Positions 8,608 to 62,091 of a stretch of 64,000 nucleotides of DNA are shown piece after piece. Location of the stretch: assembly GCA_013349405.1 (NCBI GenBank), contig DUZS01000004.1, positions 94,726 through 158,725 of the forward strand, read 5' to 3'. Numbering within the stretch: position 1 is the stretch's first letter; each line of letters starts with the position of its first letter. A model generated the notes under the pieces. It did not search any database and had not been told where the DNA came from. It saw nothing but the letters and a program-made list of their open reading frames with translations. The position numbers were made by a program, and so were the translations under genes. This DNA is from Desulfuromonadales bacterium (lineage in GTDB: Bacteria; Desulfobacterota; Desulfuromonadia; Geobacterales; Pseudopelobacteraceae).

Positions 8608-9476
8608 GAGATATCCTTTCTATTTTTATGTTCAAGCTCCGCAATAACCTGAGCGCCGAGAAGCAGAATTATCGTGACAACTTCAATGCTGAGAAGGGCT
8701 ACCACCGTAATGGAGATGGAGCCGTAAATGATATTCACCATCGAGATCGCTGCGTAATACCAGACCAGTAGCCGGCGGGTAATCTCCCATAAAATCGCGG
8801 CAACCAGGCCGCCGATAAGGGCGTAGCGAAATCTGACCTGCACTGTCGGCATTACCAGATAGATGGAGGTGAGCATCAACACTTCGCCGACAATTCCCAA
8901 GATATAGAGTGCCACTCCGTTTGTACCGCCAAGGTCGAGACTCCAGCCCCGAAATGTCACACTCGTACTTTCCAGTGTCTCGATAGCACCGACAATAAAC
9001 GATACCAGGACGATGCCGAGGCCCATGGCAATGATGTACAGATAGGGAATGAGCGCGGAAACGAGAAAGTTGCGCCGTTTGACCCTGATCCGTTGGGAAA
9101 AGATTACTGACATGGCGTTTTCAAGCATTGAAAAAGCGAGAGAGCTGAAAAACAGCATGCCGAGGAAACCGATGATGCCGACCGTCCCGCGGTGTTCAAG
9201 GAATGCCCGCACCTGTTCAGTCAGCGTTGCCGCATACCCGGGAATGACCATTTCAAGGTACGTTGACAGCGTATGAATCAGTTGTTGCTCTTCTATGAGA
9301 TGGGTCAGTACTATCAGTGCGATGATGGAGAGCGGTATGATTGACAGCAGGGTGTAATAGGCAACCGCTCCGGACAGCAAGAACCCCTGATTTCGCATGA
9401 ACCCTCGTGCAACCTGCAGCAGGAACCTGGAGATGCGAACCGATACCTGATAGATGTTTTGAGTGGTGTCTCTCAT
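8604..9476 (-). CDS. YihY/BrkB family inner-membrane protein
   Basis: ORF 8604-9509. The LLSGAVAYYTLLSIIPLSIIALIVL motif and about 6 TM segments fit the family. The start is moved to ATG 9476 because 9508-9533 is a terminator. The TGA stop overlaps the GTG start of the glucan synthase (GTGA). Confidence 0.8.
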   Translation of the reverse strand: MRDTTQNIYQVSVRISRFLLQVARGFMRNQGFLLSGAVAYYTLLSIIPLSIIALIVLTHLIEEQQLIHTLSTYLEMVIPGYAATLTEQVRAFLEHRGTVGIIGFLGMLFFSSLAFSMLENAMSVIFSQRIRVKRRNFLVSALIPYLYIIAMGLGIVLVSFIVGAIETLESTSVTFRGWSLDLGGTNGVALYILGIVGEVLMLTSIYLVMPTVQVRFRYALIGGLVAAILWEITRRLLVWYYAAISMVNIIYGSISITVVALLSIEVVTIILLLGAQVIAELEHKNRKDIS

Positions 9477-10347: not shown

Positions 10348-10530
10348 CTACTTCCCCAATACTTTCTTGATCTGGCCAAGTTTTTCCTGAACTCTGCCGG
10401 CGATCTTTTCACCGACTCCTGCAGCTTCCAAATCCGGATCCTCATTAAGTCTTCCGGCGATCTCTTTAGCCGTACCCTTCAACTCGTGAAACGCCCCTTC
10501 TGTCTTGTCTCTGATGCTCGATTTCATCAT
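10348..10530 (-). CDS. CsbD-family general stress protein (60 aa)
   Basis: MMKSSIRDKTEGAFHELKGTAKEIAGRL...GEKIAGRVQEKLGQ matches the CsbD pattern. GGAGG sits 6 nt upstream of ATG 10530. The track ORF start at 10611 lies upstream of the promoter. Confidence 0.85.
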   Translation of the reverse strand: MMKSSIRDKTEGAFHELKGTAKEIAGRLNEDPDLEAAGVGEKIAGRVQEKLGQIKKVLGK

Positions 10531-10606: not shown

Positions 10607-10623
10607 CGCAACTTGTGTGCCAG
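10607..10623 (-). promoter_or_regulatory. sigma-54 -24/-12 promoter candidate (csbD-BON-yihY-ndvB)
   Basis: Minus strand reads CTGGCAC-ACAAG-TTGCG, about 75 nt upstream of the csbD ATG. Confidence 0.75.
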
Positions 10624-10648
10624 AGGGGAAAATAAGGTACTGCCTGTG

Positions 10649-10665
10649 CAAGAGTCTGATTTTAA
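10649..10665 (-). promoter_or_regulatory. IHF-like site (AATCAG-N4-TTG on the minus strand)
   Basis: The 17-mer CAAGAGTCTGATTTTAA is identical to 61316-61332. Both start 26 nt beyond the -24 box of a minus-strand sigma-54 promoter. It fits WATCAR-N4-TTR. Confidence 0.45.
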
Positions 10666-10717
10666 AGTGAAAATATGGACAGTTTAAGGTGTGGGGGTAT
10701 ATGAACCGTCGAAGAAA

Positions 10718-10752
10718 TCTGCCATGTTTAGCATAACTGTTACATATGGTGG
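10718..10752. promoter_or_regulatory. shared upstream box (candidate enhancer/UAS)
   Basis: CTGCCATGTTTAGCATAACTGTTACATATGGTGG resembles 25008-25041 and 16324-16357. It lies midway between divergent sigma-54 promoters. Confidence 0.4.
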
Positions 10753-10849
10753 CCCATTCAACAGTTACGACTGCCGTCAGTTATGCCGGGTTTCTCATAA
10801 CACCCGTACAAACAGACTCTTACAGCTAATCAGAGCGCGGTGAGTGCTC

Positions 10850-10864
10850 TGGCACTCTCGTTGC
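10850..10864 (+). promoter_or_regulatory. sigma-54 -24/-12 promoter candidate (AI-2E transporter-pssA)
   Basis: TGGCAC-TCTCG-TTGCT, with a core identical to 61517-61532. It lies inside the track ORF 10844-12151, so the true start is downstream. Confidence 0.75.
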
Positions 10865-10909: not shown

Positions 10910-12151
10910 ATGATGACTCAAGAATTAATAACCGGACTCCTCACAAATGGAAGCAGACGTCGCGTGATCCGCATTGAGCCATCACCGGGTACCATCATCG
11001 CACTACTGCTGCTCATTGCCGGAATATGGGCAATAACCCAACTGCTGGTGGTGGTTCTGGTGCTTGTGGCAGCGCTCACAATAGTCGGCGCCGTAAACCC
11101 TGCGGTTCGATGGTTTGAAGAGCGGGGTATGCGCCGCGGGATGGGTATTGCACTCGTATTCGCCACGCTCTCGGTAATTGCAGCACTCATTATTACACTG
11201 ACGATTCCATCGCTCATTGAGCAGATAAGCGACCTTTTGGACAAGGAACCGGCCTTGCGTGCAGGCTTGTCAAAATGGTTGAAGGAGTCACACCTGACCA
11301 GCCCCCTGGCGGATCTTCTGCGTAAAGTTCATTCAGGAGACCTTGTCAGAATGGCGGCAGCAAATGCTTTCGCGCTCTCTACGCGCCTCCTCGAGATTTT
11401 CGCGTACAGCCTGAGTTCTCTCTTTCTTGCCCTGTACATCATGATCGACCGGGACCGGCTTCGTGGAGGGCTCTTTCTGGTAGTACCGCGCTCCCACCAT
11501 ATCCGGCTTTCCCGGATCATGTTGAACCTTGAAACGATTGTTGGCGGGTACGTGCGCGGACAGTTAATCACTTCCGGGCTTATGTCCGCTTTTGTCTTCA
11601 TTCTGCTGACTTCCTGCGGCGCGCCAAACGCACTGGCTATTGCAGTGTTTGCCGGTGTTGCCGATGTACTCCCCTACATCGGCCCGATCTTTTCAGTGGG
11701 AGCAGCAGTAGTGGCGGCGTTTTCATTAAGTCCGGCAATTATTATCATTGTTCTCGTACTGATGCTCGTTTATGAAGAGTTCGAAAGCCGGTTGATTATT
11801 CCCCGGATTTATGGCCGTGCATTGCGACTCCCGTCATCGGTTATCCTGTTGTCGTTATTGGTTGGCGCTGTTCTGATGGGCATCATCGGGGCACTCCTTG
11901 CCCTTCCGGTAGCGGCTGCGCTGCTGATGCTGATTGAGGAACTGCGTGTTGAGCTGCCGGGACAACAGGAACAGGCAGAAGATGTGGAGATCAGAAAGCG
12001 GGATGATCGGGGTGAAGAAGAGTATGAGCGCCGCGCTGAAGGCATGCCTGCCGAGCAGGCCGCCGCAATCGCCGTCGAAATATCTACCGATCGACATAAT
12101 CAGGAAAAGAGTCTACCGTTAAAAACGGTTGCTCCAGAAAGCGAAGAGTGA
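10910..12151 (+). CDS. AI-2E family transporter (PerM/UPF0118-like permease)
   Basis: Multi-TM protein with an acidic C-terminal tail. The ...LPYIGPIFS... region fits the family. Start set at ATG 10910, downstream of the promoter. Confidence 0.75.
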   Translation: MMTQELITGLLTNGSRRRVIRIEPSPGTIIALLLLIAGIWAITQLLVVVLVLVAALTIVGAVNPAVRWFEERGMRRGMGIALVFATLSVIAALIITLTIPSLIEQISDLLDKEPALRAGLSKWLKESHLTSPLADLLRKVHSGDLVRMAAANAFALSTRLLEIFAYSLSSLFLALYIMIDRDRLRGGLFLVVPRSHHIRLSRIMLNLETIVGGYVRGQLITSGLMSAFVFILLTSCGAPNALAIAVFAGVADVLPYIGPIFSVGAAVVAAFSLSPAIIIIVLVLMLVYEEFESRLIIPRIYGRALRLPSSVILLSLLVGAVLMGIIGALLALPVAAALLMLIEELRVELPGQQEQAEDVEIRKRDDRGEEEYERRAEGMPAEQAAAIAVEISTDRHNQEKSLPLKTVAPESEE

Positions 12152-13912: not shown

Positions 13913-14119
13913 TCAATGCTCCCATCTATTAGTGCTGATACTATTATTGCTTCCCGGTTTTGGTATGAAATTTTTCACTGCACGCCTGTCAGGTGAATGC
14001 CCTTTCTGATACTCAGTCGTCGGATCATTTCCTTTGTAATAACCTGTGCCCGGGTCCTTCTCCTTGTGCTGATCTGTCCCTGATTCGTTTTTGTTGAGAT
14101 GCTTTGTACTTTTGTCCAT
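13913..14119 (-). CDS. small hydrophilic protein (68 aa), unknown function
   Basis: AAAGGAG lies 9 nt upstream of the ATG, about 50 nt downstream of the predicted sigma-54 transcription start. The sequence is Lys/Asp/Gly/Thr-rich with no TM segment. Confidence 0.4.
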   Translation of the reverse strand: MDKSTKHLNKNESGTDQHKEKDPGTGYYKGNDPTTEYQKGHSPDRRAVKNFIPKPGSNNSISTNRWEH

Positions 14120-14183: not shown

Positions 14184-14200
14184 GGCAACTACCATGCCAG
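14184..14200 (-). promoter_or_regulatory. sigma-54 -24/-12 promoter candidate
   Basis: Minus strand reads CTGGCAT-GGTAG-TTGCC. Confidence 0.7.
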
Positions 14201-14445
14201 AGATCTTTCATCCGTTATGAATGTCGTAAGCTACTTATATTGCTTATTAAATATAATTCTAACGTGTCTGGTGACGGAAAAACCGTATCACGATCCCGTC
14301 ACGCAGAATAAAAACCGCTAAATATGGCAGTTAACCTGTAATGGTACGGATTCCAATGGTGGTTGAAATCGTGCAATGTCGCACTACATACTATTTTCCC
14401 TTTATATTCAATCTGTTGCGCATTTTTAAACTGCTTGATTATCTA

Positions 14446-14461
14446 TGGCACGGTAGTTGCG
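14446..14461 (+). promoter_or_regulatory. sigma-54 -24/-12 promoter candidate
   Basis: TGGCAC-GGTAG-TTGCG. It overlaps the track ORF start at 14457, so the real start is the SD-preceded ATG at 14532. Confidence 0.75.
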
Positions 14462-15961: not shown

Positions 15962-16150
15962 TTTGATCTCCATTTTTTTGTGTGTCTGATTGAACGCTGA
16001 TTTTCCGGATCGGGCTGTGATCGTGTTCGCTGATGAAATATTTCAGTAGACAGAACTGAATACAAATACTCCTGACTTACAGGTTCTCCTTTCTGGGTGA
16101 ATGGATTTTGTTGCGATGTTGCATCTGGTGCGGTGCATTCCTGCAGAGGT

Positions 16151-16193
16151 AAAAAATCACCAGGGGCCCATGGGAGGGAAAGCAGCCCCTGGT
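16151..16193 (-). ncRNA. leader hairpin plus U-tract (repeat copy A): attenuator or short sigma-54-dependent RNA candidate
   Basis: Minus-strand RNA reads ACCAGGGGC-UGCUUUCCCUCCCAUGG-GCCCCUGGU followed by GAUUUUUU. It begins about 20 nt after the -12 box at 16213. Confidence 0.5.
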
Positions 16194-16212
16194 CTGCCGC
16201 TGATATATACTT

Positions 16213-16229
16213 ATCAACAAGCGTGCCAG
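16213..16229 (-). promoter_or_regulatory. sigma-54 -24/-12 promoter candidate (PEP-CTERM DUF3494 gene)
   Basis: Minus strand reads CTGGCAC-GCTTG-TTGAT (the -12 box is GA rather than GC). 24/25 identical to 24895-24911 and its flank. Confidence 0.6.
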
Positions 16230-16323
16230 AGACTGCTGGAACCGGTAGTAAGTGTAACTATCAGAATTTACGAGATAAAATATAATGGCATGAAATTCAT
16301 GGAAGAATAATCATTTTTAATAT

Positions 16324-16357
16324 CTGTCACATATGATTTTTCTGTTACATGCGGCGG
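16324..16357. promoter_or_regulatory. shared upstream box (candidate enhancer/UAS)
   Basis: CTGTCACATATGATTTTTCTGTTACATGCGGCGG lies about 100 bp from the minus promoter and about 100-130 bp from the plus promoter. Confidence 0.4.
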
Positions 16358-16453
16358 CTGTCGCTGGCAGAATTTTCTCCATCCAGCCCGACTATCAGCT
16401 ACTTTCCCCTGCAAATACAGCCAATTGAACACGTAGTATCTTCTGCACTTCAC

Positions 16454-16469
16454 TGGCACATTTGTTGCG
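16454..16469 (+). promoter_or_regulatory. sigma-54 -24/-12 promoter candidate (PAP2 operon)
   Basis: TGGCAC-ATTTG-TTGCG. Confidence 0.75.
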
Positions 16470-16511
16470 AATCCCCTTTCTGTTTTATATATGAATAAAG
16501 GAGATTTCACT

Positions 16512-24186: not shown

Positions 24187-24194
24187 AGCCGCCA

Positions 24195-24894: not shown

Positions 24895-24911
24895 ATCAAC
24901 AAACGTGCCAG
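24895..24911 (-). promoter_or_regulatory. sigma-54 -24/-12 promoter candidate (pal-like gene)
   Basis: Minus strand reads CTGGCAC-GTTTG-TTGAT. Confidence 0.6.
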
Positions 24912-24937: not shown

Positions 24938-24951
24938 TAATTATCTGATTC
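24938..24951 (-). promoter_or_regulatory. IHF-like site
   Basis: Minus strand reads AATCAG-ATAA-TTA (WATCAR-N4-TTR), at the same offset from the -24 box as 10649-10665. Confidence 0.4.
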
Positions 24952-25007
24952 TGAAAGACAAAATATAATGGCAGTGAGATCGGTGGAGTAATAACCGTTA
25001 ACTTTAC

Positions 25008-25041
25008 CTGTCACTTCTAGCATAACTGTCATATATAGCGG
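25008..25041. promoter_or_regulatory. shared upstream box (candidate enhancer/UAS)
   Basis: CTGTCACTTCTAGCATAACTGTCATATATAGCGG, midway between divergent promoters. Confidence 0.4.
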
Positions 25042-25136
25042 ATAATATTGACGGTTTCCCGCCCGGCCTGAACAGATACTTCCAATTTTAACCATGCATT
25101 CAGATAGTTGCAGCTTTCATAGCAGTCAATCGCCTC

Positions 25137-25152
25137 TGGCACATTAGTTGCC
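25137..25152 (+). promoter_or_regulatory. sigma-54 -24/-12 promoter candidate (NRAMP-cheB-like operon)
   Basis: TGGCAC-ATTAG-TTGCC, identical to the core at 50782-50797. Confidence 0.75.
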
Positions 25153-29921: not shown

Positions 29922-29938
29922 AGCAACAAGGATGCCAT
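29922..29938 (-). promoter_or_regulatory. sigma-54 -24/-12 promoter candidate (STAS / kinase-like genes)
   Basis: Minus strand reads ATGGCAT-CCTTG-TTGCT, about 70 nt upstream of ATG 29854. Confidence 0.7.
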
Positions 29939-30104
29939 ACCGCAAACAGGGTACATAATGGCGTAACATACTGACTATAAAGGTTAAAGTATGATTCATA
30001 GAATCGGGCTGCGAAAAAACTGCCAAAAATAACTGTTATAGATGACATAGTCGTCAAATGTGGTGGAGTTTGTACCGGAGTTGCCCCTGAGCAGAAAACT
30101 GCGC

Positions 30105-31475: not shown

Positions 31476-31492
31476 AGCAACGAACGTGCCAG
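31476..31492 (-). promoter_or_regulatory. sigma-54 -24/-12 promoter candidate (riboswitch leader plus DUF3494 gene)
   Basis: Minus strand reads CTGGCAC-GTTCG-TTGCT. The leader to ATG 31087 is about 375 nt. Confidence 0.75.
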
Positions 31493-31570
31493 TAAATAAA
31501 AACGTATTTTTATGAGTAACTAGCCGTAATAATACATTAAATTGTTTGTTGTCGCACCTCGTGCTGAAAA

Positions 31571-31619
31571 TCTGTCACGCGTATCTGTTGTAATTAACAG
31601 AAGTGTAATATGCGGCGGG
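31571..31619. promoter_or_regulatory. upstream box (candidate enhancer/UAS)
   Basis: CTGTCACGCGTATCTGTTGTAATTAACAGAAGTGTAATATGCGGCGG, about 80-130 bp upstream of the -24 box. Confidence 0.4.
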
Positions 31620-32386: not shown

Positions 32387-32403
32387 GGCAACTACTGTGC
32401 CAG
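32387..32403 (-). promoter_or_regulatory. sigma-54 -24/-12 promoter candidate (SARP-like regulator)
   Basis: Minus strand reads CTGGCAC-AGTAG-TTGCC, about 70 nt upstream of ATG 32314. Confidence 0.75.
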
Positions 32404-32530
32404 TTGGATATTGCTGCGGCAACTAGCTGTTTTTACGATGATTGATTAAAACGGGAGTGCTGCTGTGAAGGGTAACTGTCAGTGGAATCCGTCAGGGGTA
32501 ACATTACTGTTAAATGTGGAGGATGGTTGG

Positions 32531-32664: not shown

Positions 32665-34215
32665 TTACACCCTCACAATCCCGTACTTTCTCATCCGGGC
32701 GCGCAGGGTGCTGGCGTTGAGACCAAGAATAATTGCAGCGCCGTTTCTTCCCTCGATACGCCAGCCGGTTTTTTTGAGCACCTGCATGATGTGGTCATGT
32801 TCCAGTTCCACAAGGGCTTTAATCTCCTGCCCGGTCGATTCCTCAATTTTCGGGAAAGACTCAAAACGGTCCAATACCTGGAGAGATGTTCCCTGGGTAA
32901 TGATGACGGCCCGTTCGATGACGCTTTCCAGCTCCCGCACGTTGCCCGGCCAGCTGTACCCCTGAAGGGAATTGAGTGTTTCTTTTGTGACGGTCTCGAT
33001 CCTCTTGCCGATCTTTTTGTTGAACTTGGCGACAAAATGATTGACGAGCAGCGGAATGTCTTCACTGCGCTGCCGGAGTGGCGGCATGGTGATGGGGAAC
33101 ACGTTGAGGCGGTAGTAGAGGTCTTCCCGGAAGGTGCCGTTCTTCACTTCATCGGCCAGGTTCCTGTTGGTGGCAGCGATGATGCGGACATCGACCTTTA
33201 TGGTGCGTGGACTGCCGAGGCGCTCAAACTCGCCGTCCTGAATGACCCTCAGCAGCTTGCATTGGAGTTCCAGCGGCATCTCGCCGATTTCGTCGAGGAA
33301 GATTGTACCGCCGTCAGCCAGCTCGAACCGTCCGATCTGCCGGGCATCAGAGCCGGTGAACGCGCCCCGCTCCCGGCCGAACAGCTCGCTTTCCACCAGG
33401 GTCGATGGCAATGTCGTGCAGTTGACGGTAATCAGAGGGCGTCCTTTGCGACTGCTGCTGCTGTGGATAGCACGAGCCACCACCCCCTTGCCGGTGCCGG
33501 TTTCACCGAGGAGTAGCACCGTTGCGTTCATGGGGGCCACCTGTTCGACCTGAAGAAATACCCGTGTCAGGACGGAACTCTGGCCAATAATCTCGCCGAA
33601 GTTGTATTCCCGGTCAACCTCCTGCTGCAGGTAGATGTTCTCTTCCTGGAGCCGGTCTTTCAAGGTTTTTATTTCTGCATAAGTCCCCTGAAGTGACCCT
33701 TCCGCCTTCTTCCGTTCCTCAATTTCCTGGGTGAGCTGGACATTCGCCGTCAGCAGGTCACTTGTCCGTTCCTGGACCGTCTCTTCAAGCTCCTTGTTAT
33801 AATTAACGAGTTTCTTATAGAGCAGCCGCACTTCGAGCATGTTGCGGATGCGGGTTTTCACTTCCACCAGATCAAACGGTTTGCTGATAAAATCCTTCGC
33901 GCCGACTTCCAGTGCCCGCAGTTTATGACCCGGTTGGGCGGTGATGACCAGAACCGGAAAGTGACTGCCGCTTTCAACACTCTTCAACTTTTCCATAACC
34001 TGGAAACCGTCCATGACCGGCATCTGCAGATCGAGCAGGATCAGGTCGTAGCGGTTTTTGTCATGCAACCCGCAGACCGTCTGTGGATCCATTGTTGAGG
34101 TGACGCAGGTATAGCCTGCTTCCACCAGTACCTGCTCAAGCAGTGTGATATTGGATTCCTGATCATCAACGATCAGGATACCGGCGCTCATTATTTCCGA
34201 CTCGGTGAGTATCAT
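32665..34215 (-). CDS. sigma-54-dependent response regulator (NtrC family: REC, coiled coil, AAA+ and Fis-type HTH)
   Basis: DLILLDLQMPVMDG, Walker A GETGTGKG, ERGAFTGS (GAFTGA variant), and a C-terminal HTH AAIILGLNASTLRARMRKYGI. The ATG overlaps the kinase stop by 4 nt. Confidence 0.9.
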   Translation of the reverse strand: MILTESEIMSAGILIVDDQESNITLLEQVLVEAGYTCVTSTMDPQTVCGLHDKNRYDLILLDLQMPVMDGFQVMEKLKSVESGSHFPVLVITAQPGHKLRALEVGAKDFISKPFDLVEVKTRIRNMLEVRLLYKKLVNYNKELEETVQERTSDLLTANVQLTQEIEERKKAEGSLQGTYAEIKTLKDRLQEENIYLQQEVDREYNFGEIIGQSSVLTRVFLQVEQVAPMNATVLLLGETGTGKGVVARAIHSSSSRKGRPLITVNCTTLPSTLVESELFGRERGAFTGSDARQIGRFELADGGTIFLDEIGEMPLELQCKLLRVIQDGEFERLGSPRTIKVDVRIIAATNRNLADEVKNGTFREDLYYRLNVFPITMPPLRQRSEDIPLLVNHFVAKFNKKIGKRIETVTKETLNSLQGYSWPGNVRELESVIERAVIITQGTSLQVLDRFESFPKIEESTGQEIKALVELEHDHIMQVLKKTGWRIEGRNGAAIILGLNASTLRARMRKYGIVRV

Positions 34216-37200
34216 ACGTGTCCTTTTGTTTTTGCGTAGTTAAGTGCGATGTTCAGTGTATCCATAAATTTATCGACGTTGATCGGTTTGGTGAGGTAGC
34301 GAAAGAACCCGGCTTTCAGTCCCATTTCGATATCGCGCGGCATGGCATTGGCACTGAGCGCCACCACCGGTATGTGGGCGGTGGTCTGATCAACCGCCAG
34401 GATTTTCATGGCGTCAATGCCGCTGATACCGGGCAGATTGATGTCCATCAGGATGACATCCGGCAGAGAGGCGCGCGCCAGCTCAATACCGCTTTTGCCG
34501 TTCCGGGCCGTCAGCAGGCGGATATCCGGTCGGCGGGCAATAATATCCTCAACCAGCATCATATTGGCCGGATTGTCCTCGACATAGAGGAGCGTCTGCG
34601 TTGGTGCGTCACCTTCTTTGTGCCCCATGACCGCTGTCATCGTTCCGGATGAATAGGCGGGAGCGTGCGGTTTTGCCATCAGGCTCATCTCTATCCAGAA
34701 GACACTCCCCACGCCAACGGTACTTTCCACGCCGATGACACCCCCCATCAGCTCAACGAGGCGTTTGGACACGACCAGTCCGATACCGGTTCCCTGTTCG
34801 CCGCTCGATTCCTGTCCAAGACGATTAAACGGCTGGAAAAGCTGGGCAAGCTGTTTTGGAGTGAGTCCTGCCCCGGTATCCCGAACGTTGATCCGAACCG
34901 ACTCCGTGCCGTTCACAACGCTCTCCACCAGCACCGTTCCGCCCGCTCTGTTATATTTGATCGCGTTGGAAAGAAGATTGATGAGCACCTGTTTGACCCG
35001 TGTTCGATCCGCCTCGATAAAGCAGGGGAGAGCGAATTCTTGAAAGGTCACGCTGATGGCATGTTTTATCGCCTCTGGTTCGATCATGGTCTCACATTCG
35101 TGCATGACTTCAGGCAGGGAAACCGGTTCCAGCGACATGGAAAGTTTGCCTGACTCTATCAAGGCGAGGTCGAGGATCTCGTTGATTAACTCGAGCAGGT
35201 ACCAGCCGGCCTTGAGAATCTGATCGATGCTGCGCTTCTGGTTTGGGGTCGGCTGAGGTGAACCGGATTCCACGAGTTGGGCAAAGCCGAGGATCGCACT
35301 GAGCGGCGTGCGCAGCTCATGGCTCATACTGGAGAGGAAATCCGATTTTGCCAGGTTGGCTTTTTCCGCGACAAGCGTGGCACGCTCCAGTTCGATGTTT
35401 TTATCCTGCAGTACCTGTTCGAGCCGGACACGTTCGGCTTCAACCAGCTTGCGAGCGGTGTTGTCGGTGCCGATCAGCAGGTATCCGATGATAGCATTAT
35501 GGACATCGCGCAGAGCCGTTACCGACACGACCGCCGGAAAACGGCTGCCATCCTTGCGGATATAGGTCAGTTCGTAAATATCCTCAATGCTGCGCGAAGC
35601 CTTGAACACCAGAGCCTCAAAACCGGGCGCGATGGCGGTGCCGAGTTCGGAACTCAAGGTCTCGGCACGCAAAATAACTTCCTGCGGATCGGAAATTTCG
35701 GCCGGGGTGATCTTGTTCATCACTTCTGCGGCCGTGTAACCGAGCATCCGCTCTGCGCCGACATTAAAGATCTGGATAACCCCCTTGGCGTCGGTGGCGA
35801 TACTGGAGAAGTTGGCGCTGTTAAAAATCGCACTTTGCAGCGCCCCCGCTTTGACCAGGGCCTCTTCCGCCAGCTTGCGAGCCGATATATCGCGCAAAAT
35901 TCCGGTGAAGTAGCGCTGCCCTCCCATCCACATCTCGCTGGCTGCAAGCTCCAACGGGAAATAGCTGCCGTCTTTACGTTTCCCCATAACTTCGCGACCG
36001 TGGCCACTGGCACGAGCCGCTTCACTCGCGCTGTAATATTCGAGAGAACCGTCGCGTTGATCCTGATCGAGCTCAGGAATCAGCAGACTGAAGTTCTGAC
36101 CTTCGAGTTCTTTAGCCGTATAGCCGAACATCAGTTCAGCCGCAGGATTAACCGTTTCAACGAGAGCGCCGTGTGCATGAATGGTGATAATTCCATCCAC
36201 CACGGTATTGAGAATCGCCCGCATCAGCGCGGCACTGTCACGCATCGATTGCTGCACCAGGTATTCCTCGGTGACATCACGGAACACCAGCACGGCGCCG
36301 ATCACCTGATCTTCGCGGTTGCGGATCGGGGAGCAGCTGTCAGCAATATCATATTCGCTGCCATCGCGGGCAATCAACACGGTGTGGTTGGCCAGGCCCT
36401 GGGACGTGCCATGGAGAATGGCAGCCATTATCGGGATAGGTGCGGGGAGTCGGGTCTCTTTATTGACAATGTGAAAGATCTCGTCTACCAGGTGCCCGGA
36501 AGCTTCAGCTCCACTCCAGCCGGTGAGCTGTTCGGCAACCGGATTCATGCGGGTTATCCGCGCTGTGTCATCGGTTGCTATTACCGCATCGCCGATGGAG
36601 TTGAGCGTTACGGCAAGCTGCTCTTTGCTGTCCCGCAGGACGGTCTCAAGCTGCATGGCGAGCTCTCGTGCCTCGCATAACGATTCGTTCTGCATCTCCA
36701 GTTCGACCTGGGATGTTTCCAGTTCCTGCTGGGAGCGTTGCAAATCAGTGTTCTGCGCCTCCAGTTCGTACTGGGAAATCTCCAGCTGAGCTAAAAGTTT
36801 CCGCGTTTTTTCATCGTTTTCCTGTAATGACACGTTGGCCTGTGCCAGTTGTGTATTTGAATCTTTCTGAATCTCAAGCAGATGCTCTGTTTCAAGATGA
36901 ACGATATCTTTAAGCCGCTGCTTGGATTCTTTATAGATCAGATAGGCGAACGCAAGTGCCAGCAGTAGCGTCATCAGACTGGCGAAAGCAATGGCGGCAA
37001 AAAGCATACGCAGTTTAGATTGAAATTCCGCTTCGCTTTGCAGCAGCACTCCCTGCTTTTTGCTGAAGCTGTCGATCTCGGCGCGAATCGAATCCATAAG
37101 CGGCTTACCCTGCATGCCGCGTATATTTACTAATGGGGCCGCAAGGTTGCCGGCGCGACGCAACTCGATATTTTTAGCGAAATATGCCAGTTTCGTATCA

Positions 37201-37535
37201 ATCAATGGCACCAGTGCATCCAGATTTTTATCGGCACCACTCATCCGGGGCGTTTGGCGTAATTGTGCCAACCGGACTTTGACCGTATCGCGTACCGCCA
37301 GGTACGGCTGCAGAAAGCTTTCCTCTCCGGTTAACAGATAGCCCCGCAGGCCGGTCTCGGCATCCAGTAATTCGGATTGCATCTCGCCTGTGAGGCTTAT
37401 TACTGTGGAGATCTGCCTGCGTGCTTCGGCAGCAGTTGCGATCTGGCGGAAAGAGTGGAAGGTTAGCGACACAACCAGCACAACCATAAGCGCCAGTCCG
37501 ACAAGTAAGCAGATAATTTTAGTACTGTATTTCAT
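34212..37535 (-). CDS. hybrid sensor histidine kinase (CHASE3, TM, coiled coil, 3 PAS, HisKA, HATPase and REC)
   Basis: CHASE3 motif ETGLRGYLLTGEESFLQPY, H-box SHELRTPLSAILGF, GTGIGL, REC DVILMDINLPGISG. Start set at ATG 37535, after the upstream stop at 37552. Confidence 0.9.
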   Translation of the reverse strand: MKYSTKIICLLVGLALMVVLVVSLTFHSFRQIATAAEARRQISTVISLTGEMQSELLDAETGLRGYLLTGEESFLQPYLAVRDTVKVRLAQLRQTPRMSGADKNLDALVPLIDTKLAYFAKNIELRRAGNLAAPLVNIRGMQGKPLMDSIRAEIDSFSKKQGVLLQSEAEFQSKLRMLFAAIAFASLMTLLLALAFAYLIYKESKQRLKDIVHLETEHLLEIQKDSNTQLAQANVSLQENDEKTRKLLAQLEISQYELEAQNTDLQRSQQELETSQVELEMQNESLCEARELAMQLETVLRDSKEQLAVTLNSIGDAVIATDDTARITRMNPVAEQLTGWSGAEASGHLVDEIFHIVNKETRLPAPIPIMAAILHGTSQGLANHTVLIARDGSEYDIADSCSPIRNREDQVIGAVLVFRDVTEEYLVQQSMRDSAALMRAILNTVVDGIITIHAHGALVETVNPAAELMFGYTAKELEGQNFSLLIPELDQDQRDGSLEYYSASEAARASGHGREVMGKRKDGSYFPLELAASEMWMGGQRYFTGILRDISARKLAEEALVKAGALQSAIFNSANFSSIATDAKGVIQIFNVGAERMLGYTAAEVMNKITPAEISDPQEVILRAETLSSELGTAIAPGFEALVFKASRSIEDIYELTYIRKDGSRFPAVVSVTALRDVHNAIIGYLLIGTDNTARKLVEAERVRLEQVLQDKNIELERATLVAEKANLAKSDFLSSMSHELRTPLSAILGFAQLVESGSPQPTPNQKRSIDQILKAGWYLLELINEILDLALIESGKLSMSLEPVSLPEVMHECETMIEPEAIKHAISVTFQEFALPCFIEADRTRVKQVLINLLSNAIKYNRAGGTVLVESVVNGTESVRINVRDTGAGLTPKQLAQLFQPFNRLGQESSGEQGTGIGLVVSKRLVELMGGVIGVESTVGVGSVFWIEMSLMAKPHAPAYSSGTMTAVMGHKEGDAPTQTLLYVEDNPANMMLVEDIIARRPDIRLLTARNGKSGIELARASLPDVILMDINLPGISGIDAMKILAVDQTTAHIPVVALSANAMPRDIEMGLKAGFFRYLTKPINVDKFMDTLNIALNYAKTKGHV

Positions 37536-37551
37536 GGTGGAGGTTCCTTGG

Positions 37552-40251
37552 TCACGCATTCGCTTCAAGCATCGCCTGCAGCCGTACGTTCTCCGCCCGC
37601 AGTTCCGCTTCCAGAGTCTTGGTTGCGGTGATGTTGGCAAAGGTAATTACCACACCGGAAATGACGTCATCCATGGTGCGGTATGGCATGATGCGTACCG
37701 AAAACCAGCGATTGTCGGTGGTGGTGATCTGTTTTTCCGAAAAGATCAGCGTACGGTGTACCTGACGCGAGTCCTCGATAATGTCGGGATAGTTGAGGTC
37801 GTTGACGATTTCGGAAAGAGGTCGGCCGATATCAACGGTACGCAGCTTGAATATGGTATCAGTCCCGCTGGTGAAGCGCCGGATATGGAGATCATTGTCC
37901 AGAAATACGGTCACGATTTCGGTACTGTTGAGCAGGTTGCGCATATCGTTGTTGACCCGCGCAAGCTCGTCCATTTTCGACTGCTGCTCGGCGTTCACCG
38001 TCTGTAGCTCTTCATTCAGTGACTGCATCTCCTCCCTCGAAGTGGTCAGCTCTTCGTTGGTGGATTGCAGCTCTTCGTTGGTTGACTGTAGTTCCTCATT
38101 GGTAGATTTAAGCTCCTCCTGGGAGGATTGCATCTCTTCGCGGTTGGCCTGGAGCGTTTCCCGGAACTGACGTTGTTCCTGTTCCAGTTCGAGCACCCGG
38201 GCGCTGCTGATTGAAGGGGGGCCGTCATGATTCGACGGAGCATGAACCTGGATGGGCGATGACACGTCGCGGAAGATGATCATGACCATCCCGCGCAGCG
38301 CTTCCGGTTCTTCGACGGACTGAACGGTGATGTCAACCGATTGTGCTGCATCACCTTTGCCCACCGTGAGACCCTTGGCCATGACGGTCTCTTTGAGTCG
38401 GACCGCTCTCTGGAACGCACTGCCAAGATCAGAACGAAGCCCTTCACGAGCCATTGCAAAAATATTCCAGTTGGCTTTTCCGGCGGCAGGTTCCAGGTAT
38501 TTGCCGGTTTTGCCACTGATATAGAGAATATCACCGCTTTCATTGGTCAGTACGGCGGGTGGTGAAAACTGCTGCAGAAGCAGATTGTCGGCCAGTGACT
38601 GCAGGTTGACAGCCGGTTTTACCATCGGCAACTCCTTTGAGGTTCCGTGAAAAGCGGGAACAAACGAGGCGGGAAATGCAAGCGGCTCTAACTGTATGAC
38701 GGACTCCCGCCGCTGGAAGAAGCGCGACTTGACGTTCAATGGTGCAAAAAGGTGCGTATAGGTGCTGATGGTTTCGGCACTCCCCAGAAACAGGATGCCG
38801 CCCGGTGCAAGGCTGTAATGGAAGAGCGGCATGAGCTTTTTCTGCAGTTCCGGTGTCAGATAGATGAGCAGGTTACGGCAGATGAGGATATTCAGCCGTG
38901 TAAATGGGGGATCCATGATGATGTTCTGTGTGGCAAAGGTCACGACATCGCGGATCTCCTTGCTGACCCGGTAGCCGTTTTCCTCCTTGATAAAGAACCG
39001 TTTCAGCTGTTCGTCGGCAACATTCTCGCTGATGGTGAGCGGATAGAACCCATGACGGGCCTTGTCAATCGAATCGTTATCCAGATCGGTGGCAAAAATC
39101 TGCAGCGAAAAATTTTCAGACGGTCTGACCTGTTCCAGCGCCATCTTGAAGGCGATGGCCAGCGAGTAGGGTTCCTCTCCGCTTGAACAGCCGGCCGACC
39201 ATGCCCGCAGAATCCCGCCTGACGGGTGCGCGGCCAACAGCGCCGGTATGCCTTCCTTGATCAGATATTCCCATGACTCGGGGTCGCGAAAAAAGCTCGT
39301 CACACCAATCAACAGCTCTTTGAAGAGAATTTCCACCTCCTGGGGGTTCTCCCGCAGGTAGCGGACATACGCCCCGATCCGGTCAATCTGGTGGACACTC
39401 ATGCGCCGCTCAATGCGGCGCTGCACAGTGTTTTTCTTGTACAATGAGAAGTCACTGCCGGTCTTGGCCCGCAGGAGGATGAGGACCTTCTCCAGGGCGC
39501 TTTGATCTTTCTCCTCCAGCGGTGGTTCACTCCTGGTAATGACCAGGGTGTGGTGGAGATAGGCGATGATCTTGCCCGGCAGCTCCTCGGCCGGGGCGAC
39601 AATATCTGCTACCCCGGCATTAATGGCGCTTTTCGGCATGCTGTCGAATTTTGCTGAAGCCGGCTCCTGTGCCAGGGTCACGCCACCATGCTCTTTAATC
39701 GCCGTGAGCCCCAGCGTGCCGTCCGAACCCATACCGGAGAGGACAACTCCAATGGCACCATCCGTGCGATCATCGGCTAAAGAGTGGAAGAAAAAATCGA
39801 TCGGAAGCCGGAGACCACGCGCTGCCGCCGGTTCAAACAGGTGCAGCACGCCGTGCAGGAGGGACATGTCCCTGTTGGGCGGGATGACATACACGCAGTC
39901 CGGTTGAACCTTCATCTGATCTATGACCTGAAAAACCTTCATCCCGGTAACCCGCTGGAGCAGCTCAGGCATGATCCCCTTGTGGGTTGGATCCAGGTGC
40001 TGAATGATGACAAAAGCGCAGCCGCAATTTTCCGTCACATGCCGCAGAAACTGTTCCAGCGCCTCAAGTCCACCGGCAGAGGCACCGATGCCGACGATGG
40101 GGAAGGGGGCTTCCGGAATGCTTTCACAGGAAGCCGGTTCGTGGGCATTTCCACGTCTGGTCATTTTAGTTCGCACTTTCATACGGTTACCATAACAGTA
40201 TTCCGGCGAATGCACTAATTTATTGTGTGGAGCCCCTCCCGCGCGGTTCAT
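37552..40251 (-). CDS. CheB methylesterase/CheR methyltransferase fusion with a coiled coil and C-terminal PAS
   Basis: VGIGASAGGLEALEQFL, VIIQHLDP, the CheR SAM region ILRAWSAGCSSGEEPYSLA, STNEELQ x3, then PAS. Confidence 0.85.
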   Translation of the reverse strand: MNRAGGAPHNKLVHSPEYCYGNRMKVRTKMTRRGNAHEPASCESIPEAPFPIVGIGASAGGLEALEQFLRHVTENCGCAFVIIQHLDPTHKGIMPELLQRVTGMKVFQVIDQMKVQPDCVYVIPPNRDMSLLHGVLHLFEPAAARGLRLPIDFFFHSLADDRTDGAIGVVLSGMGSDGTLGLTAIKEHGGVTLAQEPASAKFDSMPKSAINAGVADIVAPAEELPGKIIAYLHHTLVITRSEPPLEEKDQSALEKVLILLRAKTGSDFSLYKKNTVQRRIERRMSVHQIDRIGAYVRYLRENPQEVEILFKELLIGVTSFFRDPESWEYLIKEGIPALLAAHPSGGILRAWSAGCSSGEEPYSLAIAFKMALEQVRPSENFSLQIFATDLDNDSIDKARHGFYPLTISENVADEQLKRFFIKEENGYRVSKEIRDVVTFATQNIIMDPPFTRLNILICRNLLIYLTPELQKKLMPLFHYSLAPGGILFLGSAETISTYTHLFAPLNVKSRFFQRRESVIQLEPLAFPASFVPAFHGTSKELPMVKPAVNLQSLADNLLLQQFSPPAVLTNESGDILYISGKTGKYLEPAAGKANWNIFAMAREGLRSDLGSAFQRAVRLKETVMAKGLTVGKGDAAQSVDITVQSVEEPEALRGMVMIIFRDVSSPIQVHAPSNHDGPPSISSARVLELEQEQRQFRETLQANREEMQSSQEELKSTNEELQSTNEELQSTNEELTTSREEMQSLNEELQTVNAEQQSKMDELARVNNDMRNLLNSTEIVTVFLDNDLHIRRFTSGTDTIFKLRTVDIGRPLSEIVNDLNYPDIIEDSRQVHRTLIFSEKQITTTDNRWFSVRIMPYRTMDDVISGVVITFANITATKTLEAELRAENVRLQAMLEANA

Positions 40252-40405
40252 CGTTCCTCTTCATGAATGTCCCCCTCAATATACTAAAGAACCACCAAAT
40301 ATGAAGGCTAACCAGGCTTTTGAGGCCGGTAGATTGTGGTGGTACGTGAAGCCAACAACCTGTAATGGCACGATATTACCGCTGTTAATATGATTATTAA
40401 TTTGT

Positions 40406-40421
40406 TGGCGGACTAATTGCT
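40406..40421 (+). promoter_or_regulatory. sigma-54 -24/-12 promoter candidate (Ig-like/DUF3494 lipoprotein operon)
   Basis: TGGCGG-ACTAA-TTGCT. The leader to ATG 40685 is about 265 nt. Confidence 0.55.
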
Positions 40422-44530: not shown

Positions 44531-44722
44531 TTCCTTACCCACCTCAGAATATAATTCCTTCATCTCCCATCAACTGGCATCGGCAATTTAGAATTCCACC
44601 ATATGTAGCGGCATGTCTGAATGTGGCGGGTGTATGTGACGGATTTTCCGTATTATCGAATAGTAAGTCTTTAATTAATAACAATAACAGTATGTTACCG
44701 AATATGAAGATGAGTCGTTTAT

Positions 44723-44738
44723 TGGCTCGATAGTTGTA
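44723..44738 (+). promoter_or_regulatory. sigma-54 -24/-12 promoter candidate (weak -12 box)
   Basis: TGGCTC-GATAG-TTGTA. The promoter and about 30 nt of leader are homologous to 45849 onwards. Confidence 0.5.
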
Positions 44739-45717: not shown

Positions 45718-45752
45718 CTGTCACATATAACGGCTGTGTCACATATAACAGG
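45718..45752. promoter_or_regulatory. direct repeat of the upstream box (candidate enhancer/UAS)
   Basis: CTGTCACATATAACGG-CTGTGTCACATATAACAGG, about 100-130 bp upstream of the -24 box at 45849. Confidence 0.45.
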
Positions 45753-45848
45753 TCCCCCTCCCGCCCGATTAACCCGGCACATTGGATTTTAATCATAATT
45801 ATTATTATATTTCAGCATGTTGTGTTTCAGGTGCTGATTACCTTCACT

Positions 45849-45864
45849 TGGCACACTAGTTGTA
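45849..45864 (+). promoter_or_regulatory. sigma-54 -24/-12 promoter candidate
   Basis: TGGCAC-ACTAG-TTGTA. Confidence 0.6.
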
Positions 45865-50602: not shown

Positions 50603-50781
50603 GCTCTTCCCGGCATTTTTCCATTCGTCGCACAGAACCTCCTCAAAATCACCCGTCAAATAATACAGTTATTTCAAACATGACGGGATCAGATAGCAGT
50701 TTTCCATTCTCCATGCCGCAGTGTATCTCAATTCCCCCATATATTCAGACTCTTGCAGGCTATGATTCCGTGATGCTTACA

Positions 50782-50797
50782 TGGCACATTAGTTGCC
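50782..50797 (+). promoter_or_regulatory. sigma-54 -24/-12 promoter candidate (DUF4398-OmpA pair)
   Basis: TGGCAC-ATTAG-TTGCC. Confidence 0.75.
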
Positions 50798-61273: not shown

Positions 61274-61290
61274 CGCAACTAACGTGCCAT
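61274..61290 (-). promoter_or_regulatory. sigma-54 -24/-12 promoter candidate (four small genes 61197-59764)
   Basis: Minus strand reads ATGGCAC-GTTAG-TTGCG, about 75 nt upstream of ATG 61197. Confidence 0.75.
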
Positions 61291-61315: not shown

Positions 61316-61332
61316 CAAGAGTCTGATTTTAA
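61316..61332 (-). promoter_or_regulatory. IHF-like site
   Basis: CAAGAGTCTGATTTTAA is identical to 10649-10665 and sits at the same offset from the -24 box. Confidence 0.45.
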
Positions 61333-61516
61333 TGGGTTTAAATCGAGTGAAAGGTTCTGAGTGAAGGGGTCGCCGCCATCGCCTCCCGTCATATTTGGCA
61401 GTTGCGTTAGGCGTGACGGGTTCCGCATATAAATTCGGCTTTACGCTTTACGCATATTTTATATTTATCCGTTTACAAACAGACCGTTGCAATTGCAACG
61501 CCCGCATATTTTTTTC

Positions 61517-61532
61517 TGGCACTCTCGTTGCT
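61517..61532 (+). promoter_or_regulatory. sigma-54 -24/-12 promoter candidate (41-aa ORF)
   Basis: TGGCAC-TCTCG-TTGCT, identical to 10850-10864. Confidence 0.75.
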
Positions 61533-61754: not shown

Positions 61755-62075
61755 GTTGCCGACAGCCAAACCTGGAAACCAAAGTAACGCGCACACGATC
61801 GGCTTGCAAGGCGAACACCCCCAGGAAGCGAAGCTAGGCCCATGCTTGATTATTTGATCAATTCTGTAGGTAGCCTTGGTCACAGGGCTATCCTGCACGA
61901 CACTATCGTGAAAATTGCATAAGCAACACCGTACACCAATCACCGCCCGTCATATATGGTCATTATGCTAAATACAACGGTTTCTGCTGGCGACTTCACT
62001 TTCACCACCCGTTCCGAATATTATAGTATCTATTAAAAACAGCTTGTTAGGCTGCAAAGAATCCAAAGATTATCT

Positions 62076-62091
62076 TGGCGTGGTAATTGCG
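62076..62091 (+). promoter_or_regulatory. sigma-54 -24/-12 promoter candidate upstream of dnaK
   Basis: TGGCGT-GGTAA-TTGCG, about 70 nt upstream of the ATG. Confidence 0.55.

Follow-up and report, generated by a model that had tools for sequence, protein, structure and literature searches.

Overlap of one-way units on a symmetric enhancer probably fixes the spacing of divergent sigma-54 promoter pairs in a Desulfuromonadales bacterium

In the nif promoters activated by NifA, a TGT-N10-ACA site lies ∼100–150 bp upstream, an IHF bend lies between, and activation is helix-face dependent. Some activators of this kind serve divergent genes; for example, the E. coli NtrC-family response regulator ZraR has a single target in the zraP/zraSR spacer for two divergent sigma-54 units (PMC8249747). 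In Desulfovibrio vulgaris Hildenborough, divergent sigma-54 operons of a T3SS have one activator site, that of DVUA0100, in common (PMC4641369), and OrpR co-regulates divergent sigma-54 operons with IHF via 17-bp imperfect palindromes (PMC8359166). At norVW, NorR needs several adjacent dyad sites for the assembly of a single active oligomer at its sigma-54 promoter (PMC2831303). Here we consider a 64-kb stretch of a Desulfuromonadales genome (the window), in which a sequence-only reading had pointed to five back-to-back sigma-54 promoter pairs and had described them as a reusable bidirectional module of a type not previously known. The claim of novelty does not stand, as divergent sigma-54 promoters with one activator site have already been described for zraP/zraSR and for the Desulfovibrio T3SS, and the repeated entity, as predicted from its motifs, is not a bidirectional cassette: it is a one-way unit of ∼146 bp consisting of an upstream activating sequence, an IHF site and a promoter.

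A direct motif check of the window recovered all five divergent pairs at the coordinates first given, in the form TGGCAY-N5-TTGC/TTGA, and their offsets, measured as in the sequence-only reading, are indeed 228, 247, 226, 227 and 228 bp for pairs 1 to 5. On the minus strand, the -24 box of pair 2 is TGGCAT, off the perfect consensus, and the -12 box of pairs 3 and 4 is TTGA, not TTGC; otherwise the boxes show the GG/GC doublets of TGGCAC-N5-TTGCW, and all ten promoters have a sigma-54 box score of at least 9/10 and face an open reading frame that starts no more than ∼250 nt away. Exact TGGCAC-N5-TTGC occurs 12 times in the 64-kb window against 0.62 expected, and TGCCA-N220-250-TGGCAY-N5-TTGC ten times against 0.03 expected from shuffles, with eight of the ten matches coming from the five pairs. 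Every pair has two outward promoters and, in the common spacer, one predicted activator-binding region, the shared element being a 34-bp core in four pairs and a 16-bp site in the other. Very probably, these boxes are sigma-54 promoters that have IHF sites and a central activator site, and the transcription starts that they imply are likewise predictions. A scan of two pairs detected no sigma-70-like promoter against 2.0 expected, and rpoN is absent from the 64-kb window. Elsewhere, a sigma-54-like box at 19571 stands without an enhancer. The genes beside the pairs had been called unrelated between copies, and the gene sets do differ in all five (Table 1). What looks like an 8.6-kb gene desert at the left edge of the window is one giant open reading frame that runs off it.

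What does a single unit look like? The window holds 18 of them, ten in the five pairs and eight alone. The predicted enhancer contains two 16-bp imperfect palindromes (consensus CTGTCATATATGACAG) that are 18 bp apart and, on the promoter side, a half-site, TGRCRG, which is weak or missing in some units. The two palindromes span -131 to -98 relative to TGGCAC, that is, they are dyad sites within the ∼80–150 bp upstream of a promoter where an upstream activating sequence is looked for. Between enhancer and promoter lies an IHF-like core (consensus AATCAG-N3-GTTR). Its start is 89–92 bp downstream of the distal end of the enhancer, where the first palindrome lies, and 10–15 nt upstream of the core is a tract that is 80–100% A/T across 25 units. 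The -24/-12 promoter follows 39/40 bp beyond the core or, in a minority, 29/30 bp beyond it, one helical turn shorter. Among the 16 listed window units, the distance from the far edge of the enhancer to TGGCAC is 129–131 nt in 13 and 127 (twice) or 120 nt in the rest, and the core is at -38 to -40 in 14 and at -30 where the enhancer is at -120.

The internal landmarks noticed in the sequence-only reading fit into this unit, not all of them in the form proposed. The IHF-like WATCAR-N4-TTR site is real, almost all units having the start of its core 39/40 nt before the T of TGGCAC; the AAAATAT(AA)TGGCA element also exists, but it falls on the A/T-rich tract ahead of the IHF core; and the central CTGTCAC...ATATGCGG box, real as well, is not a single box but the paired 16-bp palindromes with their flanking half-site. 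Profiling these regions gave statistical support to the internal motifs. Most palindromes lie above the window's 99.9th percentile in score, and a 47-bp enhancer matrix scores 15.8–49.7 at the window units versus a maximum of at most 13.0 in 20 shuffled windows. Leave-one-out scores are 13–40 for nine of the ten training sites, and units outside the training set reach 32.1 (dnaK), 15.8 and 17.6. A comparison of 8-mers between the regulatory regions and the remaining sequence picked up mainly A/T-rich words of intergenic DNA and was of no use. The gammaproteobacterial LexA SOS box (CTGT-N8-ACAG) has a look-alike consensus, but the arms here are not invariant, with C at positions 2 and 4 in 41% and 39% of half-sites; the palindromes lie ∼130 bp from sigma-54 boxes, a sigma-70 promoter was not found in the two pairs scanned, and LexA was rejected.

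Table 1. Predicted units, their parts and the linked signalling genes, with positions in the window
Feature	Position	Strand	Remarks
Pair 1, minus promoter	10608..10622	-	TGGCACACAAGTTGC; predicted to drive CsbD (10348-10530), then BON, BrkB, possibly cyclic-glucan synthase
Pair 1, IHF-like core, minus promoter	10649..10661	-	AATCAGACTCTTG; 39 nt upstream of TGGCAC
Pair 1, enhancer	10706..10765	.	two-palindrome shared core 10719-10752; half-site each side
Pair 1, IHF-like core, plus promoter	10810..10822	+	AAACAGACTCTTA
Pair 1, plus promoter	10850..10864	+	predicted to drive AI-2E-family transporter (10910-12151)
Pair 2, minus promoter	14185..14199	-	TGGCATGGTAGTTGC; predicted to drive 68-aa protein (13913-14119)
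Pair 2, IHF-like core, minus promoter	14227..14239	-	TATAAGTAGCTTA
Pair 2, enhancer	14284..14361	.	one 16-bp palindrome (14315-14330) shared, 'site 1' for both promoters
Pair 2, IHF-like core, plus promoter	14406..14418	+	ATTCAATCTGTTG
Pair 2, plus promoter	14446..14460	+	predicted to drive 128-aa membrane protein (14532-14918)
Pair 3, minus promoter	16214..16228	-	TGGCACGCTTGTTGA; then hairpin and T-run (16154-16200), ice-binding-like PEP-CTERM gene (14972-15973)
Pair 3, IHF-like core, minus promoter	16255..16267	-	ATTCTGATAGTTA
Pair 3, enhancer	16311..16370	.	shared core 16324-16357
Pair 3, IHF-like core, plus promoter	16415..16427	+	ATACAGCCAATTG
Pair 3, plus promoter	16454..16468	+	predicted to drive PAP2 phosphatase gene (16491-17072)
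Pair 4, minus promoter	24896..24910	-	TGGCACGTTTGTTGA; then hairpin and T-run (24834-24880), OmpA-family gene (24195-24797)
Pair 4, IHF-like core, minus promoter	24938..24950	-	AATCAGATAATTA
Pair 4, enhancer	24995..25054	.	shared core 25008-25041; half-site each side
Pair 4, IHF-like core, plus promoter	25098..25110	+	ATTCAGATAGTTG
Pair 4, plus promoter	25137..25151	+	predicted to drive Nramp transporter gene (25239-26975)
Pair 5, minus promoter	61275..61289	-	predicted to drive 68-aa protein (60991-61197)
Pair 5, IHF-like core, minus promoter	61316..61328	-	AATCAGACTCTTG
Pair 5, enhancer	61373..61432	.	shared core 61386-61419
Pair 5, IHF-like core, plus promoter	61477..61489	+	AAACAGACCGTTG
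Pair 5, plus promoter	61517..61531	+	predicted to drive 41-aa membrane peptide (61629-61754)
Single unit	29923..30066	-	before STAS / 55-aa / histidine-kinase-like genes (29956 down to 28151)
Single unit	31477..31618	-	then c-di-GMP-I riboswitch (31251-31327), ice-binding-like gene 30206-31105
Single unit, short class	32388..32522	-	enhancer -120, IHF -30; predicted to drive 195-aa BTAD-like gene 31727-32314
Weak candidate unit	40274..40420	+	Big_5/ice-binding-like gene 40685-42751; TGGCGGACTAATTGC at 40406; by eye in part
Weaker single unit	44596..44737	+	ice-binding-like gene 44798-45610; TGGCTCGATAGTTGT
Single unit	45718..45863	+	122-aa gene 45877-46245
Single unit	50653..50796	+	DUF4398/OmpA/DUF748 gene run (50828 onwards)
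Single unit	61947..62090	+	enhancer 61947-61993, IHF 62037-62049, TGGCGTGGTAATTGC 62076-62090; dnaK 62161 to window end
Candidate cognate enhancer-binding protein	32665..34215	-	receiver, sigma-54 AAA+, Fis-type HTH
CHASE3-PAS hybrid histidine kinase	34212..37640	-	presumed sensor for activator
CheB-CheR-PAS10 fusion protein	37552..40251	-	adjoins activator gene in relatives too

The minus promoters of pairs 3 and 4 may yield short RNAs rather than mRNAs, given their TTGA at -12 and the terminator-like hairpin directly ahead. These leader hairpins, which a simple terminator scan missed because the loop is 15 nt, fold with unremarkable z-scores of -0.5 to -1.1.

The geometry of the pairs can be derived from that of the unit. 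The two-palindrome core is identical on both strands, so outward-pointing units can overlap on it. Where both palindromes are shared (34 bp), the expected offset is d(+) + d(-) - 34 + 1 = 226–229 bp; where one is shared (16 bp), it is 247 bp, which accounts for pair 2, whose promoters share only the palindrome at 14315–14330; and where none is shared, as in the related locus L204, divergent units with separate enhancers are offset by 377 bp. The formula reproduces all five offsets in the window as well as those of L138 (229) and L191 (226). Since the enhancers of L204 are separate, the unit, not the pair, appears to be the basic element, and a rigid one-way unit would by itself give constant pair geometry, which would then not be a property of a separate bidirectional element. 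In other words, the pairs are in all likelihood two ordinary units overlapped on a dyad-symmetric enhancer, with the rigid unit fixing their spacing. What survives of the proposed reusable bidirectional module is therefore the reuse, the same design standing before unrelated genes, while the eight single units and the separate enhancers of L204 speak against a bidirectional entity; similarly, the near-constant spacing is real but not specific to a module, as both 226–228 bp and 247 bp follow from the arithmetic of overlap. Mechanistically, we propose that activator dimers on the palindromes would assemble into an active hexamer, that IHF would bend the DNA such that the enhancer-bound ATPase touches the sigma-54 polymerase on the correct helix face, and that the two-palindrome core, common to both outward units, would impose the fixed overlap and hence the constant spacing.

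Which protein binds the enhancer? Presumably it is the NtrC-family activator encoded at 32665–34215, or a paralogue with the same DNA-binding helix, linkage and conservation being the evidence for this assignment. The short-class unit lies directly downstream of the activator gene, and in four further orthologue loci (82–93% identity) a unit is found 220–380 bp downstream of that gene, or ∼2.2 kb in L204. When related genomes were searched, similar units appeared in no fewer than eight related contigs, each from a genome that has an activator orthologue, and the same unit distances recur in L005, L138, L191, L203, L204, L205 and L206. Units are present in six of nine orthologue loci (the window, L005, L203, L204, L205 and L206); for the other three (L003, L004 and L008), no convincing unit was found in the flanks present, two of these contigs ending <0.6 kb from the gene, and L003 has a different gene context without a unit. 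Across 80 loci around activator relatives (1.36 Mb), there are 12 enhancer-matrix matches above 14, and 11 of these fall in L005, where the activator has 77% identity across its AAA+ and DNA-binding portions; 78 loci with distant activators gave one weak match. Enhancer and cognate activator gene thus co-occur across genomes, and the recognition helix STLRARMRKYGI is conserved across the orthologue group. Proteins of this activator type form more than 120 clusters at ≥79% identity in environmental Desulfuromonadaceae/Geobacteraceae genomes. The activator does not reach the curated cut-off for any named family tested: FhlA, the best-scoring model (408 bits versus 830), ZraR (355 versus 760), NorR (346 versus 476), NifA (373 versus 529), AtoC, NtrC, and the PEP-CTERM-box regulator PrsR (TIGR02915; 345.9 versus 502.6), though one target gene has a PEP-CTERM tail.

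Could the pairs and their spacing have arisen by chance, or are divergent intergenic regions generally ∼230 bp long? Some support for the latter comes from a metagenome sample, in which the matches listed include 116 divergent sigma-54 box pairs that are non-redundant and perfect and have gaps of 212–242: among these listed pairs, gaps of 226–228 are over-represented (21 of 116, p ∼0.004) and only three of the 116 carry the present enhancer, so the preference for this distance may be general. We nevertheless give this explanation virtually no weight, for the number of pair matches far exceeds that in shuffles, the internal motif positions are fixed to within 1–2 bp, and the same unit distances account for the 247-bp and 377-bp cases; chance lengths coupled with a lack of motif conservation do not describe this window, where box, pair and enhancer-matrix statistics all exceed expectation. 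A copied or mobile DNA module, be it a promoter cassette or a MITE/REP-like repeat, inserted between unrelated genes is also very improbable. The spacer sequences between the boxes have a mean identity of 28–34% across all units, about random, which suggests a regulon under geometric constraint and not a copied cassette; only the minus halves of pairs 3 and 4 depart from this, with spacers ∼60% identical, 94% identity over a 33-nt stretch and a leader hairpin in common, and we take this likeness to mean that a half-unit was duplicated at least once. Pairs 1 and 5 do have exact 17-mers in common around their promoter boxes and IHF site, but the boxes are equally frequent as single one-way units, and pair 5 has a positional orthologue in the related contig L191 with the same 68-aa gene alongside. 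A repeat search of the window found the promoter boxes as its only inverted repeats, with no terminal inverted repeats or target duplications; a MITE/REP-like cassette, which should show whole-length similarity and either terminal repeats or target-site duplications, was rejected on both counts.

It is also unlikely, although less far-fetched, that the palindromes are bound by another protein whose needs the geometry serves, such as a PAS-type paralogue of the activator, the BTAD-like protein (31727–32314) or a repressor. In all cases the 195-aa BTAD-like gene accompanies the system, and a unit stands in front of it; a second, receiver-less activator gene adjoins a unit in L205 (a locus that ends before the DNA-binding end of this gene), and L005 has, in the part of the locus that is present, the same sites with a PAS-type activator only. 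However, this second activator type of L005, with a PAS domain instead of a receiver, has nearly the same DNA-binding end and recognition helix, which makes it a variant of our preferred explanation and no contradiction of it; the sites of repressors generally overlap the promoter, and for an enhancer-binding protein, 16-bp dyad sites ∼130 bp upstream of a sigma-54 promoter, with IHF between, are in the textbook position.

We consider it likely that the 18 promoters of the window belong to a single sigma-54 regulon and form a dense island of it. The genes that these promoters face are, by their predicted products, mostly of cell-envelope, osmotic-stress or general-stress type. A stress-response reading would take in as targets dnaK, CsbD, BON/OsmY-like, Usp and OmpA-family genes, cyclic-glucan synthase, ion transporters and DUF3494 'ice-binding-like' surface proteins. 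Our literature search for sigma-54 in connection with CsbD, dnaK or a stress regulon of this lineage turned up nothing specific. More speculatively, and with considerable doubt, one can imagine that an uncultured Desulfuromonadaceae/Geobacteraceae lineage has a sigma-54 general envelope and osmotic stress response, governed by a signalling set of a conserved CheB-CheR-PAS protein, hybrid kinase, activator and BTAD-like protein, in which one hexamer on a strictly stereospecific two-way enhancer drives, or alternates between, two promoters in one of two discrete overlap registers.

Sequence alone yields a putative binding motif, regulon core and promoter grammar for an uncharacterised and widespread sigma-54 activator, and suggests that genes for chaperones and stress proteins are under sigma-54 control in this lineage. 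A grammar rigid to ±1–2 bp, with an alternative one helical turn shorter, offers a natural test bed for enhancer position, IHF bending and helical phase. The shared symmetric enhancers also pose a mechanistic question: would one bound activator complex serve two promoters simultaneously or competitively?

How, then, does this locus compare with described systems? It resembles that of ZraR in that the targets are tied to envelope stress, but ZraR acts at a single locus whereas here five pairs and eight single units lie within 64 kb; the site sequence differs, and the present activator fails the ZraR model. We know of no report of a rule of fixed overlap registers for zraP/zraSR. For OrpR, each operon has a single site upstream, the sites flanking the gene of OrpR itself, and there is no overlapped enhancer, unlike in the pairs here; the regulons of DVUA0100 and OrpR are one or two loci in size, and their motifs (GGGCGYRTTTTGCGCCC for OrpR) are unrelated to ours. 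The three-site NorR enhancer is similar to the two palindromes plus half-site found here, but it belongs to a single locus, and the divergent norR is not described as sigma-54 dependent in the account cited. The layout of upstream site, IHF and sigma-54 promoter is that of the NifA systems, which differ in regulon function and in motif, the motif here being CTGT-N8-ACAG-like, and whose model the present activator also fails. What is new, as far as these predictions go, is an unusually dense and rigid example of a known design, the divergent shared enhancer.

All five divergent sigma-54 promoter pairs that a sequence-only reading had located in the window are present where it placed them, with the offsets tabulated below (last base of the minus-strand TGGCAC or TGGCAT to first base of the plus-strand TGGCAC). 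Exact copies of TGGCAC-N5-TTGC number 12 in the window, where shuffles predict 0.62, and the pair pattern TGCCA-N220-250-TGGCAY-N5-TTGC matches 10 times versus 0.03 expected, with 8 of the 10 matches belonging to the five pairs. Three boxes are off consensus: TGGCAT at 14194-14199 and a -12 TTGA in two minus promoters, those at 16214 and 24896. A scan of two cassettes for sigma-70-like promoters returned none (2.0 expected).

What is the repeated element? The pair had been taken for a reusable bidirectional module of near-constant geometry, a reading that is supported only in part; what repeats is a one-way unit of enhancer, IHF-like site and -24/-12 promoter. When the upstream regions of all intergenic sigma-54 boxes are oriented, ten paired promoters and eight single ones have the same anatomy, and in a related locus, L204, two divergent units have separate enhancers 377 bp apart; the basic element must therefore be smaller than the pair. 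The "central box" of the earlier reading is real but resolves into two 16-bp imperfect palindromes whose starts are 18 bp apart (consensus CTGTCATATATGACAG), followed by a TGRCRG half-site at +41 to +46. Likewise, its "AAAATAT(AA)TGGCA element" exists but is better described as the A/T tract (80–100% A/T) that lies 10–15 nt upstream of the IHF-like core, AATCAG-N3-GTTR. Ten of the enhancers were used to build a 47-bp matrix, which scores 15.8–49.7 at units and no higher than 13.0 across 20 shuffled windows. In leave-one-out scoring, nine of those ten sites reach 13–40, and three non-training sites (61947, 44596 and 40261) are recovered.

Counted to the T of TGGCAC (by eye for the 14446+ unit), the far edge of the enhancer lies 129–131 nt upstream in 14 of 17 window units, 127 nt in two and 120 nt in one. 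The IHF core starts 38–40 nt upstream in 15 of the 17 and 30 nt upstream in the 120-nt unit; the 31491- unit has no convincing IHF core. Because enhancer edge and IHF core are 89–92 nt apart wherever a core is called, this distance is invariant, and the IHF core stands at either of two distances from the promoter, which differ by one helical turn. Conservation does not extend to the spacers between boxes (mean identity 28–34%), with the exception of cassettes 3 and 4, whose minus halves are 60% identical, have a leader hairpin in common and are evidently a recent duplicate.

The constant pair spacing follows from this anatomy. Since the two-palindrome core is symmetric, with the same reading on either strand, outward-facing units can overlap on it. 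Where the distal palindrome of each promoter is also the proximal one of the other, 34 bp are in common. Such sharing gives an offset of d(+) + d(-) - 34 + 1, which equals the observed value in cassettes 1, 3, 4 and 5 (228, 226, 227 and 228). In cassette 2 a single palindrome is in common, the distal site for both promoters at 131 nt each, and therefore 131 + 131 - 16 + 1 = 247. The half-site flanks the core on both sides in cassettes 1 and 4 and on the promoter side only in single units.

Related genomes hold similar units. A genome-collection scan with the activator yielded 80 loci (1.36 Mb), in which the enhancer matrix has 12 matches above 14, 11 of them in L005; the activator there is 77% identical over its AAA+ and DNA-binding parts, and its enhancers are followed, at a distance of 128–132 nt or 120/121 nt, by sigma-54 boxes. 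Four further orthologue loci (L203–L206) all keep the order CheBR, kinase, activator, ~190-aa protein. In L203 (enhancer/IHF distances 130/39), L205 (120/29) and L206 (129/39) a unit closely follows the activator gene; in L204 (130/39) it is 2.2 kb away. The available flanks of three other orthologue loci, L003, L004 and L008, contain none. Perfect divergent box pairs separated by 212–242 bp were found at at least 120 loci in a metagenome scan; among the matches listed, only three carry the unit-type enhancer: L138 (offset 229), L191 (226; next to the 68-aa gene, as is cassette 5, its positional orthologue) and L142 (230; a variant motif). Gaps of 226–228 are over-represented (21 pairs, p ~0.004, in a small sample of 116 non-redundant pairs among the matches listed), a hint that similar constraints act in other regulons. 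Gaps across L083–L202, again among the matches listed, are uneven, with humps at 213–217, 226–228 and 235–236; almost none of these pairs has the window's enhancer, and L178 and L179 are examples with NtrC-like sites.

The window encodes one sigma-54 activator, the candidate for this enhancer, with receiver, AAA+ and Fis-type HTH domains; its gene comes after those for a CHASE3-PAS hybrid kinase and for a CheB-CheR-PAS fusion. Its recognition helix, STLRARMRKYGI, is kept across the orthologue group, and a protein search returned more than 120 clusters at 79–93% identity, all from uncultured Desulfuromonadaceae/Geobacteraceae-type genomes. Against each of the named NCBIfam activator families the protein scores below the curated cut-off (best FhlA, 408 bits versus 830). 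In L005 the activator (575 aa) has a PAS domain, no receiver and a nearly identical DNA-binding end, and lies directly behind the CheB-CheR-PAS gene without the hybrid kinase; in L205 a unit lies beside a second activator gene (572 aa), which lacks the receiver and whose DNA-binding end lies beyond the locus. These two genes suggest that two paralogous activators may share the enhancer, and the regulon may respond to two kinds of input. The ~190-aa protein, whose gene is in every case linked to that of the activator, matches BTAD weakly and has a SARP-like N-terminus; it may be a co-regulator or take part in feedback. A unit faces its gene wherever the upstream region was checked (window, L005, L138, L203, L204, L205 and L206). 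A G+C-rich 37-nt inverted repeat directly follows the activator stop codon and closely precedes the next enhancer; it probably terminates the operon.

Coordinates of the promoter pairs, units and associated features (window positions unless a locus is named)
Feature	Position (strand)	Remark
Cassette 1	10608/10850	offset 228 bp
Cassette 2	14185/14446	offset 247 bp; common palindrome 14315-14330
Cassette 3	16214/16454	offset 226 bp
Cassette 4	24896/25137	offset 227 bp
Cassette 5	61275/61517	offset 228 bp
Single-unit promoters	62076+, 45849+, 44723+, 50782+, 40406+, 32402-, 31491-, 29937-	40406+ weak
Glucan-synthase-like ORF	1-8619 (-)	at least 2873 aa, off left end
Hairpin copies	16154-16200, 24834-24880, 24146-24192 (-)	
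Sigma-54-like box	19571-19585 (+)	TGGCATGCTCATTGC
Ice-binding-like gene	30206-31105	
c-di-GMP-I riboswitch	31251-31327 (-)	RF01051, 39.7 bits; gathering score 35
~190-aa protein	31727-32314 (-); L138 383-991; L005 5912-6472	
Inverted repeat	32545-32623	
Activator	32665-34215 (-)	
dnaK unit	61947-62090	-24 box TGGCGT
dnaK	62161-64000	Hsp70, 905 bits
L005 activator	within L005 6768-11122	
L205 second activator	L205 20335-21551	

The promoters face genes that are mostly associated with stress or the cell envelope: CsbD, BON (OsmY-like), BrkB, an AI-2E transporter, a PAP2 phosphatase, OmpA-family proteins, Nramp, DUF4398/DUF748 proteins and several DUF3494 "ice-binding-like" proteins. MlaA lies further along the DUF4398/DUF748 run; a Usp protein and a P-type ATPase, further along the PAP2 run, are candidate members at most. 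What had looked like an 8.6-kb ORF-less stretch is one giant ORF (GT2, glucoamylase and GH94; cyclic beta-1,2-glucan-synthase-like) directly downstream of CsbD-BON-BrkB, and it may belong to the same sigma-54 operon. With a unit of its own, albeit with a weaker -24 box, the core chaperone DnaK appears to belong to the regulon; sigma-54 control of chaperone genes has been predicted in other phyla (PMC12316311). The riboswitch, placed between the 31491 unit and an ice-binding-like gene, implies two putative layers of control on that gene. Upstream of the Usp gene, a sigma-54-like box without a recognisable enhancer of the unit type is either another activator's target or a chance match. One hairpin (ACCAGGGGC, a 15-nt loop with CCCUCCC, GCCCCTGGT and a T-run) occurs three times: shortly after the minus promoter in cassette 3, likewise in cassette 4, and at the 3' end of the OmpA gene. 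It may act in the leader as a terminator or attenuator, or define a ~55-nt sRNA, and among all loci compared it was found in this genome only.

Every part of the unit is textbook sigma-54 architecture. An activator hexamer would assemble on two or three dyad sites, and the IHF bend would bring it to sigma-54 polymerase on one side or both, a mechanism deduced wholly from the sequence that we regard as probably the right reading. The sequence-only reading was not aware of a described module of this type. Divergent sigma-54 units with one activator region are already published: within the spacer that separates zraP from zraSR, ZraR binds one target (PMC8249747). The divergent orp operons are co-regulated by OrpR with IHF (PMC8359166), and NorR requires a set of three enhancer sites next to one another (PMC2831303). 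The unusual points in the window are that 18 units of one enhancer type occur in 64 kb, that their geometry is maintained to ±1–2 bp across genomes and that the overlap registers are discrete; compared with known divergent sigma-54 systems, the window differs in degree, not in kind.
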